This document shows positions 43,260 to 61,800 of a DNA stretch of 64,000 nucleotides, one piece after another. The position numbers were made by a program, and so were the translations under genes. Origin of the DNA: Owenia fusiformis. Its lineage: Eukaryota. Under the pieces are notes generated by a model. It had not been told where the DNA came from. It saw nothing but the letters and a program-made list of their open reading frames with translations, and ran no database searches. Where the stretch lies: positions 11,718,001 through 11,782,000 of the forward strand of contig CAIIXF020000001.1 of assembly GCA_903813345.2 (NCBI GenBank), in the 5' to 3' direction. Every line of letters begins with the position of its first letter. Position 1 is the stretch's first letter.

Positions 43260-43858
43260 ACATTTTACATTCTGTGGTAGAATTAGTGTGGGAAGCAATT
43301 ACGCTTTCACCTAATAGCTGCACAACATTAACATATTAAACTCCTTCTGTGGTAGAATTTATATGGACAGCAATTAGGCTTAGTCACCTAATAGCTGCAC
43401 AACATTAACATATTAAACTCCTTCTGTGGTAGAATTTATATGGACAGCAATTAGGCTTACACCTAATAGCTGCACAACATTAACATATTAAACTCCTTCT
43501 GTGGTAGAATTTATATGGACAGCAATTAGGCTTACACCTAATAGCTGCACAACATTAACATATTAAACTCCTTCTGTGGTAGTATTTATATAGACAGCAA
43601 TTAGGCTTACACCTAATAGCTGCACAACATTTACATTTTACACGCCTTCTGTGGTAGAATTAGTGTGGGCAGCAATTAGGCTTTCACCTAATAGCTGCAC
43701 AACATTAACATATTAAACTCCTTCTGTGGTAGAATTTATATGGACAGCAATTAGGCTTAGTCACCTAATAGCTGCACAACATTTAAATGTTACACGCCTT
43801 CTGTGGTAGAATTTACATGGGCAGCAACTAGGCTGTCGCCAAGTAGCTGCACAAATCT
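43260..43858 (-). repeat. Tandem array of 8 x ~75-77 bp spanning the KYNU stop codon and 3' UTR
   Basis: TTCTGTGGTAG recurs at ~43271, 43346, 43423, 43498, 43573, 43648, 43723 and 43800. The rightmost copy encodes [20 protein letters not shown]. Confidence 0.9.
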
Positions 43859-46800
43859 GTGTACATCTTTGAATGAGTTGTACAGTGGGGCTGGGGCTAT
43901 ACGTATCACATATGGCTTACGAACATCACACTGAAAATAAACAGCAAATGTGTCTTCCGAAGAAAATGTTTACCTATTTTAGATCAACACTTGACAATGT
44001 TAAACCAAAAAATTTAAATGGAACAGCTCAAATATCTTAAACATTTATAATCTAACAGTGTTCATTCATTACTGTTCATTTCAAAAGAAACCTTTGGAAG
44101 CACAATAATAATTGATCATTTTATCAATTTTTTACAGTCAAGTTTCATCATTATGTAACTTAATCTCTCCGGACAAGATATAATTAACTTCAATATTCAA
44201 TCAAGTTTCATATTACTGTATTATCTTATAATGCAGCATCAATCAACTGTCCGGTACATTCAATCAAGTCTCCACAACATGAAATCAACTTACCACAACG
44301 CCTCTTTTCTCCAATTCGGTGTAGACATTCTTTAAAGACACAGAGAACATGATAGAAAGCTGACAACCTCTCTGGTCAGGATCCCTGGGGCTGATGACCT
44401 CCGCATAGGGGCGGGAGTGAGGGTTAGCAGGAGTTGGACGGGGGTAGTGCTCATCCAATAGCATCTCAAGGTATGCTGTGAGTAGCTTAGACTTCTCACG
44501 TAGAGCGCTCATACTAGTTTCATTGAACACCTAAAGTACAAGAGTCACTTCATTTTATAGTGTGTTTTTCATTTTTTTATTCATTCCCCATAAATAATTG
44601 ATATTATGTTGCACGCAAAATAATAAGAGAACCTTAAATACAATATAATACATTATGTACTTGTTAGCTAGGGAATCAAGCAAATTGTCTCGTAAATGAT
44701 AAATGAAATACTTCACATGAATGTACACCTCTGGTCTAGACTGGTTTTATTTGTTTAACTTGTTTGTGTTCAATGTTAAGAATATCTTATGCAACAAAAC
44801 ACTTCATCATAACAGTGCTTTATTTAATCTAAAAATTGTGCAAAATTGACACTCAAGTGGCCGCAATATTGACATTTGAAAATCAGCTGTTGAGCTGAAC
44901 TTCAATCCCCATAGCACAAGTGTATATGCTATACAACATGATCGGGTCATCAGTGAGGCTACTTTTAGAAGCCCTGATTTCATTTGATGAGATAATAAGG
45001 CAGCCAAAGCATTCTCTTCTCAAGGAACCACTTGATAAAAGAGTTAATTGAAAATGAGATTGAACTAACCGACCAATCAGAATGTCACTAATCTAGAGTA
45101 AAATTAACGAAGTAAAATAAATTGATGGCCATACCTTCAGACTAGCCTCTAGTGTAGCACAGAGAAGGGGTGGTGGGTTACTAACACGGTATCCATGTGC
45201 ACCATTTGCTAAATCCATTTCTGAAATAAGGCATTTCATTTGTGCTATATCTATAAGTCACTTTCTAGGCTTTCATTGTGACAAAAAACCAAGCATAACT
45301 TTCACTGTCTGAACCAGAGCTCCCTATTAAGGCACAGTAACAAACAACAAAGTAACAAAATAGAGGAGCAGATATTGTCTTTACAATCTGTACCTAGATA
45401 AATGGAATCCAAAAGCATTTGCATCATGACTACTGGCAACCTTTTTGAAAAGGGTTATTTTATTCATTAAACAAAGTAAAGGCTTAAAAAAATATTGATG
45501 GTGCTCTAAAGCCTCAGTCACATTTGCTCTACGATGGGCATATAGTGGCCGTAGCTTCACAAAATCGATATAAAAATTCTATATCACACTGCTTGTCTCT
45601 ATATTTTATGCTGCATATTTCTCTTGATTTAGGGAAGCTACGGCTGCTGTACAATCAAATATGACTGAGGCATTAGAAGTTTTAAAGATTATGCGACAAT
45701 ACTTACTGTTGTCCATGTTGAATCGTGTGTCCATTTTGTGACCCCACCAGCCTGACAGCTTTGGGAAGTCATTCTTGGCATGTTTCTTGTGAATAAATGC
45801 CCCTGCTATACCACCTGCCCCTGTGTTCAGGTACTGCAATAAAACAAGTAGATGGGAATTACATTTAAGGTACTGCAATAGAAAAATGGCTGGGAATTAC
45901 ATTTAAGGTACTGCAATAGAAAAAATGACACGGAATAACATTTAAGGTACTGCAATAGTAAAATGGCAGGGAATAACATTTAAGGTACTTCAATAGAAAA
46001 AATGGCAGGGAATAACATTTAAGGTACTGCAATAGTAAAATGGCTGGGAATTACATTTAAGGTACTGCAATAGAAAAAATGGCTGGGAATTACATTTAAG
46101 GTACAGCAATAGAAAAATGGCTGGGAATTACATTTAAGGTACTGCAACAGAAAAAAATTGCTGGGAATTACATTTAGGTACTGCAATAGAAAAATAGCTG
46201 GGAATTACATTTAAGGTACTGCAATAGAAAAAAATGGCTGGGAATAACATTTAAGGTACTGCAATAGTAAAATTGCTGGGAATTACATTTAAGGTACTGC
46301 AATAGAAAAAAATGGCTGGGAATAACATTTAAGGTACTGCAATAGTAAAATGGCAGGGAATTACATTTAAGGTACTGCAATAGAAAAAACGGCCGGGAAT
46401 TACATTTAAGGTACTGCAATAGAAAAATGGCTGGGAATTACATTTAAGGTACTGCAATAGTAAAATGGCTGGGAATTACATTTAAGGTACTGCAATAGAA
46501 AAAAAATGGCTGGGAATAACATTTAAGGTACTGCAATAGTAAAATGGCTGGGAATTACATTTAAGGTACTGCAATAGTAAAATGGCTGGGAATTACATTT
46601 AAGGTACTGCAATAGAAAAAAAATGGCTGGGAATAACATTTAAGGTACTGCAATAGTAAAATGGCTGGGAATTACATTTAAGGTACTGCAATAGAAAAAA
46701 TGGCCGGGAATTACATTTAAGGTACTGCAATAGAAAAATGGCTGGGAATTACATTTAAGGTACTGCAATAGAAAAAAATGGCTAGGAATTACTTTTAAGG

Positions 46801-55800: not shown

Positions 55801-58800
55801 TTTGGCCAGAGAGGCTGACTACGGACCTGCCTCATTTATAGTCCTAACCTTCATGGGACTGCCATCCAAGGACTGAATTAAAATGAATAAATCAGAGTAG
55901 ACTGGAAGACAAGTTTATTTATCTTTTTGAATGTCTTGTAACAAATTTTTGATGGAGCCAATAATGCTTCAGAGTATAGGCCCTCGACATTATGTATTAT
56001 GTATTTCATTTAAAACAAAGAAGAAATTGACCTAAAGAATTTATAGTCTTACTATAGTGTATATAAGTATTATGGTACGGATGTGTTAATTAATATTTTA
56101 AAATAAATAAATATGCCACACCTTTAACAAACATGCCCCATGTAATACCATATGTGCATAACTTGTCAATAATCTTAATTAAGATTGAAGATGATTAATT
56201 AATAAAAATCTTAAAATACACAAAGAGTGCATGTAATTAATTAATTAATTGTGTAACCCTTGTACAATGTGTTCACCTGAATAGTATATAAAGGCCACCA
56301 AAAATGAAGAAGTCATAGTTCCATTGAGCGTTCAATCTACAATTATGTTAACTTTAGCAGTTTTCGTCGCAGGACTCGCAGCAGTGATGGCTGAGGGATA
56401 TGGATGTAAGTACAATATATTAAACTTAAAAGTTATTGATCACACCTCATATTTCATACAAGGCATTAACATGACAAAATGACACCACCTAGTTGCTCAC
56501 AATATTATGAGTTCAATCTTAAGTCAGATTTGAATTTCTGAGAACTAGTTGATTTTGAGTATAAAATTGGTCAATTTAACCCTTTCACGACGATAGGCTC
56601 CATATGGAGCCCTATTATGTAATACCTTTCAGGACGATAGGCTCCTTTTGGCACCATTATTTTTATCTATATACATCAATGAAATGACAATATCTCCAGT
56701 TCTATTCAGTATTTTTACACCAAATTTTGACAAGTTGTTCTAATGTGATAATCCTTACTAAAAATTGTATTTCAGTGATAAAATTCAGGGTATAGGTCCC
56801 GGGGCGTAGGTATTTTGCAGTTTTCCCCTAAAAACTGCTCTTACTTATCCGTCACCAGAGCCAACATTTTCCTCTTATATTCATGTCGGGAAAGGGTTAA
56901 GCAAGATGGAAAAATACCTTTTTGACCTTGAGAATGCCATTGAAAGTCAAATCTATAGTTAGATTTGAACTGTTGAGAACTTGTAGATGATTTTGATAAA
57001 AAAAATTGGTCAATTTGAAGCAAGTTGTAAATAGACCTTTTAGACTTTTTTGACCTTGAGAAGGTCATTGAAGGTCAAATCTCAAATCTAAAGTCAGATT
57101 TGATTTTTTGATAACTTGTAGATGATTTTGAAAAAAAAAAATTGTTTGAAACTTATTTATTTTAAAGTTTTGTAACAGGTCATCACCCAGTGATGCTGAC
57201 ATATATAAATTGGTACAATCTAATCATATAACATTTTCAACTGTTATTTAACAATTTATAAAATATAAATGTCAACGCAAAAATCAGGAGAAATACCCGG
57301 GAACAGTTCTGATACTGGATTTGATACAGGATTTTGGCTGATACAGGTTATGATACAGTATTCTGTCTGATACGGGATCTGATACTGGATTTCAGCCGAT
57401 ACAAGATCTGATATAGGATCTTTTGAATATAAATTCTATTGTCTGTTAATTTTTCAGAGAATTTCAGGGAAAACATGTTATTATGGAATAATTATATATA
57501 TATTTCCCTCGAGATAAACCCTCATAAAATAACTTTTTTATTCTAGCCCGATGCTTTGACTGCAACTATGCCCCATCAGGCTACAGCTACCAGTCTGACT
57601 ACTGGAAGCGATCCACCACAGCTGGGTATGAGGGATGTGCCCTAGCTAACTATGATGATGCTGATAACCTCGACAAATGGACCTGCAAATCTGGAAGGTG
57701 CTTCATCCGTAGGGACAAGAATGGACGTAAGTTGTCTTAATGTGTAACTACAGTGATGACATTTACTTTTAACACATCTTACATGTTTTTAATTGTGTAA
57801 ACCAAGGTTATACATGTATGGATATGGGTTTGATGAGACCTGGGTTGGGATGATATCATAAGGGACTGAGATGAACTCAGATTAAGAGGGCCAAGGCTGA
57901 TGACAACGAGGGGTTAATCTGACTTTAGGCTACCTTGACCGAGATTTTATTCGATCAATTGTATTGACTATCATGTCACCACCAGAAGTGTTGATATATC
58001 ATAATTGTTTTTAAATATTGATTTGCCATTAATTCCCAACCACTTTTGCAGTTGTATACAGAGGATGTGCTGATGAGGAAAACCTCCCCCTTGGTGTCAA
58101 CTCTTACAGTGGCTGCCAGTATGTTGCTGGATCCCAGTGGTATTTCTGCAAGGGAGATCTCTGCAACAAGGGACAGATTGGAGACTACGGACATTGTGAC
58201 TACAAGCCATCATACCGATCCCACAGCTACAGTAAGTACAGCATACAAGGCATTAACATGACAAAATGTCACCACCTAGTTGCTCACAACATAATTAGTT
58301 CAATCTAAAGTCAGATTGGAATATCTGAGAACTTGTAGATGATTTTGAAAAAAATTGGTCAATTTGAAGCAAGTTGAAAAAAGACCTTTTTGACCTTGAG
58401 AAGGTCATTGAAGGTCAAATATATTTTGACCTTGAGAATGCCCTTGGAGGTCGAATCTATAGTCAGATTTGAACTTTTGAGAACTTGTAGATGATTTTGA
58501 AAAAAATGGTCAATTTGAAGCAAGTTGAAAAAATACACTTTTGACCTTTCTTTGACCTTGGGAAGGTCACTGAAGGTCAAATCTTAGTTCTAAAGTCAAA
58601 TTTGAACAGTTCATGTATAATTAACTATCATAGCTTCAAAAAAAGATTATATAACTTTATATATCTATTATATACTTTATATATATGACTTAAATATTAT
58701 TGCAATACATGTGGTCTCACTTTTATTTTAGACCCATGTGACGGCAAATGCTACGGCAACCCCAGTGGACTCTTCAAGGACAACTACAACCCATACGGGT

Positions 58801-61800
58801 TCATCCAGTGTGGATGTGACTACAAATACGATGCCTACAGCAAGACCAGCAAGGCCTGTATCTGCTGCAAGCCCCTCCATGTCAAATGCCCCAAGGGAAC
58901 AGCTTTCAATGACTACGCCAAGGTCTGTGACACTGCAAGCTACACTGCCCCACATGCTGCCCCTGTCCACCATGCCCCTGTCCACCATGCCCCAGCTTAC
59001 CCAAGCTACCATGCTCCAGCTTACCCAAGCTACCATTAAACCTTTGTTGTTAAGAATTTGTAGTGTTTTAATAAATCAAGAAAATGAACATTTTTGGTTT
59101 AGTCGGTTTATGCATGTTGTTTAAACAAAGGAGATTTCAGTTATTAGAATTCGCAGATTTTACTACTTACTCAAAATAATTGGACTACCCATACTGTACA
59201 TTCAATACCCTATACATTTTTAAATCGTGAGATTTGCACTAATTTGATTACTGCAAGGCCATAAAAGGATGGTACATACAATCATATCATCTTTGTTCAC
59301 CTTCATACAATTCGTTGATCGCCTTCATACAATTAGTGTAACATTCCTGACAATCCATATGGGGCATGTCATGCACATTATGACTTGCCTAATATAATAC
59401 ATGAAACACCATATAAGGAGAGCATAATACATGAAATACCATATAAGAAGAGCATAATACATGGAATACCATATAAGAAGAGCATAATACATGAAATACC
59501 ATATAAGGAGAGCATAATACATGAAATACCATATATAAGAAGAACATAATACATGAAATACCATATAAGGAGAGCATAATACATGAAATACCATATAAGA
59601 AGAGCATAATACATGAAATACCATATAAGGAGAGCATAATACATGAAATACCATATATACAGGTAGCTATATGATGGGATCACTAGGGGAGGCCATTTGT
59701 ACTGAAAGAAGAGTTTTCAGTATGTTTTTGTACTGAAAATTTTTTTTAAGTATATATTTGTATACTGAAAATGTACTGACTTTTTACAGTGTAAAATAAG
59801 TACTGAAAAATATACTGACTTTTTAAGGACATTTTTAAGTCTATTAAACACTAACAATTTTAAAAGGATTTAAAACAGCACGTGTATGTATGGAGGACAA
59901 AGCAAATGTCTAAAGTCATCAAGCTTGTAAGTCTAGTGTTGATAATATACAATTGTTGGCCTCTCCAGAGGTCAACCGGCAAAATTGTATACCGAGACTG
60001 TAAACCAAGAAACTACTGTTGACAGAGACCGAAGGTCGAGGTCAACAGTAGTTTCAAGGTTTACAGTCGAGGTATATGATTTTGACAGTTGACCGAATGG
60101 AGAGGTCTACAATTGTTTTGTTAGTACGAAGAAACTACAGTAATAATGCACATATACAGTATATAGACGACAATCATCAATCGGCATGGCTTCATTTCAC
60201 AATCTTTTCTCCGAACCACGCCAACAATATTTTTTAGGAAATCTGAAGGCAGTTGAAGCTAAACTCTCTGTTTTCGACACATCACTGGGTACTCATTAGT
60301 AAATTAATGTTAATTTTACGTTTCTATTTGTATTTTTGTATGTAAAGTCAAAATATCAATTTCATCAACATTTACAAAATGTCCGTCTGCCATGTTTTAT
60401 CTGTAGACATTATGACGTCATAAAACTTTTTTCAAAATTAGCGGTCAACAGTACCCAGTAGCGGTCAACAGTACATATTGTTGACCGCTAATCAACCAAT
60501 CAGAATCGGGTATTTCAGTTGAGGTACTAACAACATACCTTGTAAGTGCACCAGCATGCAAAGTCAACATCCCAGTCATGTAGCTGTAACTCTATGTTGC
60601 CAACAGCATGGGCGAGGTCAAAGCCAACATAACAGCCCTACAAGGAAACAACTTTATATTGAATCTTTTTTCATGTAATATATATCTACAGGCAATGTAC
60701 ATGTGGTAATATTCACTGTGATTCTATGTTGCAATTAAAAAGGAAAAAACTTCGGTGCAATTATACTCCAGCTTAAAGTTAAAAACATTTATTCGGTAAA
60801 AATTTAGCATCTGTACAATTACATTTTTTTTTTCAACGTTTGCCTTAGCATTTCCTCAGGTAAAGCGTTTTGGTTTTATTTCCTCCTTTATAAAATTAAA
60901 AGCCAACTTACTTTTTCATGGCCAGCTTTAGTAATAGCAGGCATATCAAACACTTGTCCCGTGTAGTACTGTATCCCACTGAATAATACACAGGCTATCT
61001 CATCCCCCTCTGAGGCAATACGAGCTAAGATGTCTTCTGTGCGCAGTATGTGTTCACCCTACAACATGTATTGATACACATACATGTACCCTAGACACAA
61101 ATATGGGAATATTTTAACCAAATGGTTCAATTCAATTACTGTAAACTACTTGACATATATAATACATGAGATGAATTGAAGGAAAATTTTAATTTAAAAG
61201 ATGAGGTAGAAACTGAGTAGGGCTGGATATATCCAAAAATTGATGACTCGGCAATTCTCATTTCTCCGAAAAGAAACTAGATTTATATGGTTTACGGGGC
61301 TTGTTTAAAATATACATGTATTGTATACTGTATAGGTCTTACCTCTCTAGGTTCAAGGCATACCATACTGGTTGCAGGGTCATATCCATGTAAACGAATT
61401 TGTGATTCAATGGCATACTGTAAATAAAATATACAAATATGTAAATTATACATTATCATATCATTGTACCACATAGCCACTGAGCAGAGTTCGCAAGGAC
61501 ATCTCCCTGCTCGCTAATGATGGTGAACAAGGGCGAACCATGAAAAGAATGGCTGCAATGCAGTGGTAATAATCTATAGTATAAAACTAGAAGAATTAGA
61601 TCACAGCAATGCCAAAGTGTAGCAAATCCCAATGAACAGCTGCCATTTTTACAAAATTCTACAACTTTTTCAGTTATAGCAAAACTCCTTAAATAACACC
61701 CATAAAGATGGCCATCATTTTCAAAATAGTCACTCACTAGCCAAATAAATCAGCACTAAAATGGCTGCCATTTTTAGACAAGTGGCCATTTTGAAAATCG

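Follow-up and report, generated by a model that had tools for sequence, protein, structure and literature searches.

We analysed a 64,000-nucleotide (nt) stretch of the Owenia fusiformis genome (contig CAIIXF020000001.1, positions 11,718,001 to 11,782,000 of the forward strand; hereafter the window), in which a plus-strand gene lies antisense inside an intron of the kynureninase gene KYNU. The locus is a functional intron-nested gene. Its product joins a domain homologous to the Ly6/uPAR (LU) superfamily to a domain homologous to CBM14/peritrophin-A, both with correspondingly predicted folds, and it belongs to a protein family that has expanded in Owenia.

A four-exon gene inside a KYNU intron

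The coding sequence (56345-59039; Table 1) has four parts that total 729 nt, that is, 242 codons plus the stop. When spliced by hand, it yields a protein that agrees letter for letter, the three junction codons S21, L81 and N141 included, with P0005 (NCBI CAH1773026.1, 'unnamed protein product [Owenia fusiformis]', 242 residues), a record retrieved by a protein search with the exon-4 peptide. A preliminary description of the window, made from its letters, had called the gene 'hidden'. It is indeed absent from the naive open reading frame (ORF) track, but only from there: the nested gene is already in the public annotation, though unnamed. In the structural model presented below, a helix occupies residues 2-16, within the signal-peptide region. 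The protein ends in ...APAYPSYH, without a hydrophobic stretch, as read from the sequence. This product is therefore probably a secreted member of the LU superfamily rather than a glycosylphosphatidylinositol (GPI)-anchored one; the preliminary description, too, had noticed no hydrophobic GPI tail.

The exons of the host gene were mapped with P0132, a fragment of the Owenia kynureninase, and with two kynureninases of full length, and the minus-strand ORFs 43793-43969 and 44288-44530 match Pfam KYNU_C. Since the KYNU exons leave a gap between 60518 and 45836 on the minus strand, a host intron of 14.7 kb, the plus-strand gene sits antisense inside it. The gene model, the KYNU exon mapping and the spliced contigs described in the next section bear out the earlier proposal of a complete four-exon, phase-1 gene in this position. 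No further family copy was found within the window by tblastn.

Table 1. Features of the nested gene and of its host in the window.
Feature	Position	Strand	Remarks
TATA box TATATAAA	56285-56292	+	read directly; 53 nt 5' of ATG
Start codon ATG	56345	+	read directly
Exon 1, coding part	56345-56405	+	signal peptide (16 residues) and EGYG; phase-1 end; residues 1-20 of P0005
Intron 1	56406-57546	+	GT..AG, phase 1; contains interspersed-repeat copies
Exon 2	57547-57726	+	180 nt, phase 1-1; first half of three-finger domain: C23, C26, C51, C67, C72
Intron 2	57727-58051	+	GT..AG, phase 1; location after ...NG kept in other genomes
Exon 3	58052-58231	+	180 nt, phase 1-1; second half of three-finger domain to DLCN (to 58167), then linker with conserved C129
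Intron 3	58232-58731	+	GT..AG, phase 1; repeat family shared with intron 1
Exon 4, first part	58732-58931	+	CBM14-like domain, residues ~142-207
Cys-rich insertion (20 residues)	58809-58868	+	within first part of exon 4
Exon 4, second part	58932-59039	+	predicted disordered Ala/Pro/His/Tyr tail, 2x APVHH and 2x APAYPSYH, then TAA
Stop codon TAA	59037-59039	+	read directly
Polyadenylation signal AATAAA	59070-59075	+	read directly; 31 nt past TAA
KYNU exons before host intron	62688-62614, 62281-62195, 61420-61343, 61058-60912, 60637-60518	-	tblastn, P0132/P0134/P0135
KYNU exons after host intron	45836-45705, 45224-45129, 44530-44291, 43930-43793	-	tblastn, P0132/P0134/P0135

Tandem repeats accompany both genes. 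A 75-nt array (7.7 copies, 90% matches) at 43270-43854 overlaps the last KYNU coding exon (43793-43930), and degraded copies of the KYNU C-terminal peptide are repeated downstream, at 43757-43270, by tblastn; the end of KYNU appears to be the source of this minisatellite. Just 3' of the nested gene, at 59328-59716, a run of near-identical units of ~30 nt (...catataagaagagcataatacatgaaatac...) can be read in long open frames on either strand; it has the look of a minisatellite, not of coding sequence.

Transcription and splicing

Four RNA or contig data sets (X8, X15, X19 and X20) were compared with the locus; X19 and X20 are raw RNA runs, of each of which about 6% was read. The joints across introns 2 and 3 (57726->58052 and 58231->58732, both GT..AG) are present in X8 and X15 contigs, and the second was also seen in one X20 raw read. 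The exon 1/exon 2 junction is supported as well, because the overhang of an X15 contig with a loose end at 57547, ATATGGAT, matches the last 8 nt of exon 1; exon 1 itself has zero contig depth. Over exons 2-4, X15 depth lies between 1,053 and 6,638 in six of seven bins and is 121 in the bin 57715-57815, which contains only the final 12 nt of exon 2. In the same set, depth falls to 0 in the flanks and in the bins of unique intron sequence (57210-57310, 57816-58017 and 58624-58724), and an 87-nt X15 contig (58935-59021) fits the paralog-specific tail with 0 differences. The strand signal from read mates is weak, with few reads: in every X19 exon read the first mate falls on the minus strand, which is the expectation for plus-strand RNA in the usual stranded libraries, and X20 reads are mixed. 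The mates being too few, the plus-strand assignment follows from the GT..AG introns and the open frame.

Introns 1 and 3 share an interspersed repeat. A 99-nt copy (56455-56553 and 58242-58340, 91% identity) begins 50 nt past the donor of intron 1 and 11 nt past that of intron 3; further shared copies lie at 56880-57137 and 58348-58605, together with several sub-repeats of 50-83 nt. Among RNA reads and contigs the element occurs in great abundance, its depth rising to as much as hundreds of thousands, and many of its reads continue into unrelated sequence; it is a high-copy, transcribed genomic repeat. The very high depths within introns 1 and 3 belong to it, not to the gene.

Could the locus nonetheless be an annotation artefact, or a decaying pseudogene copy? 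It is one of six paralogs that are 85-96% identical, so that some contigs or reads could derive from a sister copy. However, the frame is intact, splice sites, TATA box and polyadenylation signal are all canonical, contigs with 0 differences lie on the locus-specific tail and spliced joints are present. We regard an artefact or a dead copy as hardly credible.

The N-terminal domain

The preliminary description had noticed a three-finger-type cysteine pattern ending in DLCN. This pattern is present, with nine conserved Cys in a framework that starts with C23-x2-C26 and ends with C113-KGDL-C118-N119 (CxxC ... C-x4-CN), and a three-finger domain is supported by sequence relatives, profile comparison and fold matches. 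A phmmer search of P0005 against 1.84 billion proteins matched P0053 (E-value (E) 1.2e-9), P0057 (4.7e-9), P0063 (6.9e-8) and P0071 (1.3e-6), and these four proteins pass the gathering score of QVR (PF17064, 'Quiver family u-PAR/Ly-6-like domain'; cut-off 27.3 bits) in the matched region or in a sister repeat. QVR scores of the phmmer relatives are 39.7 bits for P0053, 41.2 for P0063, 42.8 for P0071, 34.5 for P0072, 31.6 for P0057, 31.0 for P0109 and 32.3 for P0103. Among 16 family members, one matches QVR (E 0.019) and seven match DUF7622 below cut-off. When the family was compared with hhalign to P0103, another Owenia protein, the two aligned with 97.9% probability (E 4.7e-13) over 139 columns, across the second QVR and the CBM_14 domain of P0103 in the same order. 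In this alignment, Tyr111 stands where the W-C-F-C-x4-C-N of P0103 has its first Cys; the conserved C129 of the linker probably replaces the lost Cys in a putative pairing with C102. P0005 and its exon pieces gave no QVR match at E <= 10, and because the threshold is not reached we do not file the protein under QVR as such. Its N-terminal part, residues ~21-120, is a divergent Ly6/uPAR-type domain.

An AlphaFold2 model was built from a 94-sequence alignment (mean predicted local distance difference test score (pLDDT) 74.5, predicted template modelling score 0.63) and compared with ~48,000 PDB representatives by a VIA-align wide search. Block-mean pLDDT is 71-93 over residues 21-130. Residues ~20-125 match C4.4A (6iom; Z 6.0, root mean square deviation (rmsd) 3.2, 71 aligned), irditoxin (2h7z; Z 5.9), a short alpha-neurotoxin (8r4n; Z 5.9, rmsd 2.3, 58 aligned), GPIHBP1 (6e7k; Z 5.7) and CD59 (Z 5.1), and also TEX101, Lypd6b, bucandin and PSCA. 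Ectodomains of three-finger, LU or TGF-beta-receptor proteins, placed on residues ~20-130, fill about 38 of the 50 rows listed, and nearly all rows belong to either three-finger or CBM14 proteins. For these residues the model predicts a three-finger fold, at modest Z. The KR of YWKR, put forward earlier as a possible processing site, lies inside the first finger, and relatives carry YWTR, YWRA, FWKA and GWAK; we rejected it because it is not conserved and falls within a folded domain.

A three-finger fold, relatives that carry QVR and secretion without a GPI signal would also suit a secreted Ly6-type ligand for signalling or for the organisation of junctions, such as the SLURPs or Drosophila Boudin, with the C-terminal domain as an accessory. 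However, the C-terminal domain is conserved to the same degree as the N-terminal one, the architecture is common to a canonical CBM_14 protein, and at least 18 near-identical paralogs with repetitive tails would be unusual for ligands. Such a role seems to us very unlikely.

The C-terminal domain

By sequence comparison, residues ~142-207 are assigned to a divergent CBM14/peritrophin-A-like domain. This part of the protein matches P0027 (as part of E 1.5e-38), P0030 and P0091 (E 2.7e-5), which have CBM_14 above the 22.1-bit cut-off at the matched places; scores above the cut-off among relatives are 36.7 bits in P0027, 27.7 in P0030 and 41.8 in P0103. CBM_14 is found at E <= 1 in 2 of 16 family members. 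Hhalign aligns the family with P0091, which has seven CBM_14 domains, at 88.6% (E 2.7e-6), and the two best matches of the family profile to PDB sequences are both Avr4 CBM14 structures (E 0.068 and 0.11). In UniProt, the homologs from Capitella and Paralvinella go under the name 'Chitin-binding type-2 domain-containing'. Motifs shared with CBM14 domains are G-L-F...F-I-Q-C and C-P-x-G-T-x-F, and the aromatics F155, F163 and F199, conserved in the family, fall at what we take to be the consensus aromatic positions of peritrophin-A.

In the VIA-align search, residues ~131-215 match Avr4 (6bn0, Z 6.2; 4z4a, Z 5.8), Aplysia EHEP (8in3, Z 5.7), Der p 23 (4zce, Z 5.4, rmsd 2.3, 48 of 48 residues), Blo t 12 (2mfk, Z 4.8), the CBM14 domain of CHIT1 (6so0, Z 3.6) and tachycitin (1dqc, Z 3.5). 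The predicted fold is that of CBM14, again with modest Z.

The cysteines have been rearranged. In the alignments C147, C167, C193 and C206 correspond to canonical Cys 1, 3, 4 and 5, and Cys 2 and Cys 6, which pair with each other in peritrophin-A domains, are both absent. Five extra Cys are present instead: C143, and C169, C183, C185 and C186 on an inserted hairpin in the stretch from C167 to C193, which is longer than the canonical one. The four additional Cys that the preliminary description had placed in an insertion are thus where it put them. Seven further residues, DAYSKTS, are specific to the clade of the window gene. The Cys count of the mature protein is odd, at 19, in the Owenia, Lingula and P0012 forms; homologs that lack C169 (Capitella, Paralvinella and two unnamed records) have 18. 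In the 19-Cys forms one Cys is probably unpaired, and the odd count suggests a free thiol that might be available for intermolecular bonding. Among solved CBM14 domains, the number of disulfides also differs (PMC6128652, in extract).

The matches of the C-terminal domain to tachycitin (Z 3.5) and Avr4 (Z 6.2), and of the N-terminal one to three-finger toxins, raise the question of whether the protein is a soluble defence protein or lectin, or a toxin-like effector, that would act in mucus, coelomic fluid or gut, either by binding chitin of fungi and parasites or by shielding the animal's own chitin from chitinases. A multigene family with fast-evolving parts would also suit immune or venom genes. 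Such a role appears improbable to us, since low-complexity Tyr/His/Pro tails characterise materials rather than soluble lectins or toxins (see also PMC9999432, in extract), and the two globular domains show good conservation between phyla (for the Lingula protein, 49% identity along 90% of the length).

The tail

Residues 208-242 are rich in Ala, Pro, His and Tyr and hold the repeats APVHH and APAYPSYH, twice each, just as first described; AlphaFold2 predicts residues 215-242 to be disordered (pLDDT < 50). Tails of the 16 scored Owenia paralogs measure 6-70 residues, and that of P0008, outside the scored set, is a repeat tail longer still. Tyr, Pro, Ala, His or Lys abound in these tails, which come as a Tyr/Lys/Pro type (AYKAPKP...), a Tyr/Gly/Gln type (SYGYQAP), a His-rich type of the form HHHGHHAHAH (HHHGHHAHAHRAHHY) and a type with eight copies of PSYPQPKHM or close variants. 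The preliminary description had made the His/Tyr tail part of the architecture. As a feature of the family it did not hold, as the tails of the Lingula, Capitella and P0012 proteins have 1-11 residues; judged from the sequences compared, the tail is a lineage-specific elaboration of Owenia, outside the conserved core.

Tails of this kind are also what one would look for in a tube-building or cement protein, secreted by tube glands, with DOPA (3,4-dihydroxyphenylalanine)-type adhesive or curing tails and with the CBM14-like fold as a scaffold or as a binder of another polysaccharide, no chitin being involved. The AYKAPKPAYKAPKQAYKAPEPEYK tail and the PSYPQPKHM copies resemble the adhesive repeats of mussel feet and sandcastle worms, and it is the tube-building Owenia that has the long tails and the large expansion, neither of which is seen in Lingula or Capitella. 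Also, the chitin-stacking Trp of Avr4 is not conserved, and one member of the Avr4 family with a CBM14 fold interacts with pectin, not chitin (PMC8104879, in extract). On the other side, the conserved core is present in Lingula and Capitella as well, animals without agglutinated tubes, relatives carry bona fide CBM_14 domains, and among the papers listed in a search on oweniid tube composition we found no data on chitin in the Owenia tube. We therefore give a cement protein some weight, while thinking it unlikely.

Paralogs, homologs and exon modules

Family members were sought by word-based and exhaustive protein searches, and paralogs were counted from protein databases. At least 18 annotated Owenia proteins have the same two-domain core, and they are encoded on six chromosome-scale contigs. 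Named homologs are XP_013397119.1 of Lingula anatina (whose 49% identity extends across 90% of the query), ELU11957.1 of Capitella teleta and KAK2154660.1 of Paralvinella palmiformis, and several unnamed transcript or metagenome records are homologous too. The phmmer search returned 96 matches at E <= 0.001, 26 of them at <= 1e-10; most are unnamed, and ten more that were looked up had no names either. All four named carrier species are annelids (Owenia, Capitella, Paralvinella) or a brachiopod (Lingula). A restriction to these groups is not established, most matches having no assigned taxa. The ESM Atlas contains the window protein sequence and gave no usable neighbour.

In a tree of 24 members, whose base is unresolved, Owenia sequences form three young clades, and the one that contains the window gene has six members (support 98/99). 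A branch length of 8-10 sets P0103 very far apart. P0012, an unnamed metatranscriptome record of 194 residues that has a His7 linker but lacks a tail, falls beside an Owenia subclade (support 84/80), a placement that is unsure because its amino-acid composition was flagged as deviant.

The exon boundaries can be followed beyond Owenia. Many of the matches are ORFs of one exon each, taken from genome assemblies. From other genomes, 17 such fragments break off directly behind the ...NG that closes exon 2, the next residue being R, C or S. These are the residues that NGT encodes, as a phase-1 GT donor gives, and the fragments end there; the intron position is therefore conserved beyond Owenia. 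Another 41 matches were selected by a motif filter (exon-3 start, without the exon-2 motif), and most of them have their start at VYRGCA, the opening of exon 3, or slightly ahead of it. Relatives also combine the modules in other ways, with tandem three-finger domains in P0028 and three C-terminal domains in P0027. Modular evolution through phase-1 exons, as the preliminary description suggested, is plausible in view of the 17 fragments and of these combinations.

Both proteins deserve a short description. P0028 (Owenia, CAH1776425.1, partial) has two tandem three-finger domains, no CBM14-like domain and a long tail rich in His, Ser, Ala and Asn (HTHHSHHHGHSHGHNSHVHSHHAH...), whose composition is reminiscent of metal-binding jaw proteins. 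P0027 (866 residues) has half a three-finger domain followed by three CBM14-like domains of the family type, separated by long Ser/Gln/Gly-rich spacers, so that the C-terminal domain is used as a repeatable module; it has 20 near-identical cluster members, which are unnamed transcript contigs of ~3.9 kb.

Proposed function

Among the explanations considered, we favour, with moderate confidence, an extracellular structural protein of a chitin matrix, in which a docking domain would be joined by a second module for binding and by a tail that can be cross-linked. We infer secretion, chitin binding, cross-linking and tissue. The protein would be exported into a chitin-containing extracellular matrix, where its CBM14-like domain would dock on chitin fibrils. 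The three-finger domain might provide a second binding surface, for protein or chitin, as first proposed for insect Retroactive, and the tail, possibly with the unpaired Cys, could be cross-linked by Tyr/DOPA chemistry or His-metal coordination to give a hardened composite. We count the young clades formed by the numerous Owenia paralogs, and their variable Tyr/Pro/Ala/His/Lys tails, as signs of a material protein. Also, Retroactive is a three-finger protein needed for the integrity of the chitin cuticle (PMC3561106, in extract).

Several observations weigh against this structural role. Exon depth in the raw RNA runs X19 and X20 is very low (0-3.3x). The whole of P0005 has no Pfam match at E <= 10, and exon 4 alone scores 16 bits on CBM_14 (E 0.014), below the cut-off. 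VIA-align Z values of 5-6 are middling by the tool's own scale, on a model whose mean pLDDT is 74.5, and Foldseek gave no match to the PDB at E <= 0.001, although its weak rows are almost all three-finger or CBM14 proteins. In Tribolium, Retroactive is mainly intracellular, and a direct effect on chitin was judged unlikely (PMC3561106, in extract).

The residues that would contact chitin are a further such point. In the complex of CfAvr4 with (GlcNAc)6, Trp100 and Asp102 are essential and Tyr103 touches the sugar (PMC6128652, in extract). A HMMER alignment puts Trp100 at Val205 and Tyr103 at Thr208 of the window protein; only Asp102 meets an Asp (D207), and other paralogs have Ser there. Pro87 corresponds to the invariant Pro194, and the NDN loop to N200-D201-Y202. 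CHIT1, for its part, binds chitin with residues other than those of Avr4 (PMC6128652, in extract). Since CBM14 members differ in their binding residues, the alignment is not decisive on chitin binding in either direction. For the tail the limit is firmer. The residues past the last Cys number 11 in Lingula, 1 in Capitella and 2 in P0012, and with tails missing in these proteins cross-linking cannot be a conserved function of the family.

The preliminary description had also named two findings that would overturn it, a lack of plus-strand spliced transcripts and a lack of support for either domain. Both were looked into and neither was borne out: spliced joints are present in the contigs, and profile and fold comparisons support the two domains, if indirectly.

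Where would a chitin-matrix protein of this kind act? Chaetae are the main chitin structures of such worms, and these beta-chitin bristles are common to annelids and brachiopods. We consider them the most likely tissue, ahead of a tube lining or a gut matrix, and the range of named carrier species fits them. A bolder and rather doubtful proposal is that the two-domain core, with its NPSGLF...FIQCG...CCKP signature, might be a dedicated chaetal matrix protein. In that case it would serve as a structural-gene marker for the question of whether annelid and brachiopod chaetae are homologous, and the Owenia expansion with its Tyr/His tails would tune the hardness of chaetal types or of the tube. 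This chaetal proposal is kept as a hypothesis because most family matches have no assigned taxa.

To our knowledge, the structural proteins of chitinous hard parts in annelids and brachiopods (chaetae, some tubes) are largely unknown, and the chaeta literature that we found concerns chitin synthases and transcription factors. In the searchable papers, with supplements and non-open literature outside this scope, no study was found under the accessions or locus names of the Owenia proteins or of their Lingula, Capitella and Paralvinella homologs. A paper on bristle formation in Osedax has no occurrence of chitin-binding, Ly6, peritrophin, uPAR or histidine. The text on chitin and chaetae in extracts of the Owenia genome paper makes no mention of this gene (PMC9977687; its supplementary expression tables stand outside these extracts). 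Both kinds of domain are already known and the gene is annotated; its function is inferred. Within the same literature, a three-finger domain fused to one of peritrophin-A type, two cysteine frameworks rewired in a coordinated way, and an annelid and brachiopod family whose Owenia expansion carries material-type tails appear undescribed. What emerges is a candidate family of clearly modular build, in which a domain of chitin-docking-like kind is combined with a three-finger domain and with a tail suited to cross-linking. It is strongly expanded in an early-branching annelid and offers concrete probes for in situ hybridisation, proteomics and materials research. It would also provide a second, independent link of Ly6-type domains to chitin matrices, after insect Retroactive.

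Comparison with known systems

In design, the proposed structural protein resembles the proteins of sclerotised or metal-cross-linked materials. In the His-rich proteins of insect cuticle and in the proteins of the squid beak, the domains that bind chitin are distinct from the His-rich ones that sclerotise, and a His/Gly-rich Nereis jaw protein has also been described (PMC9999432, in extract). In this set (squid beak DgCBP and DgHBP, Nereis Nvjp-1, His-rich insect cuticle proteins) a chitin-binding module stands apart from cross-linked repeats rich in His, Tyr, Ala or Gly (PMC9999432, in extract). The likeness is one of composition and design, with no homology detected, and the window repeats are unlike motifs of the GHG/GYG type.

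Insect Retroactive is likened to the window protein by role, not by sequence. It too has a three-finger domain in a chitin-matrix context, and aromatics of its fingers have been proposed to contact chitin (PMC3561106, in extract). It differs in being a single domain with a C-terminal hydrophobic region, and in Tribolium it acts mainly intracellularly, in Knickkopf trafficking (PMC3561106, in extract).

With the Ly6/uPAR proteins (CD59, C4.4A, GPIHBP1, Lynx1, snake toxins and QVR, PF17064) the window protein shares the predicted fold, the CxxC start and the C-x4-CN end. In these proteins, too, the LU domain is typically split across two exons behind a signal-peptide exon. In contrast to these proteins, the window protein has no GPI signal, nine framework Cys rather than ten, a long first finger, a fusion to a CBM14-like domain and no direct Pfam match.

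The predicted fold and the motifs of the C-terminal domain are those of the CBM14/peritrophin-A (ChtBD2) set, which includes peritrophins, the insect CPAP/obstructor proteins, tachycitin, Avr4, Der p 23, the chitin-binding domain of CHIT1 and the ChtBD2 proteins of tubeworm tubes; the latter are major components of a chitinous annelid tube (PMC8476170, in extract). Compared with this set, the window protein has a sub-threshold Pfam score, four of the six canonical Cys plus five new ones, and non-aromatic equivalents of Trp100 and Tyr103.

Finally, the same species has a counterpart that is canonical in both kinds of domain. P0103 (CAH1788342.1, uncharacterised; two QVR domains and one CBM_14) has the same order of three-finger domain, linker and peritrophin-A-type domain as the window protein. 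It passes both Pfam cut-offs and keeps the canonical C-x-C...CN ending and a six-Cys CBM14 domain, whereas the window protein is short of one three-finger Cys and of the C2-C6 pair, and has in addition the Cys-rich insertion and the His/Tyr tail.

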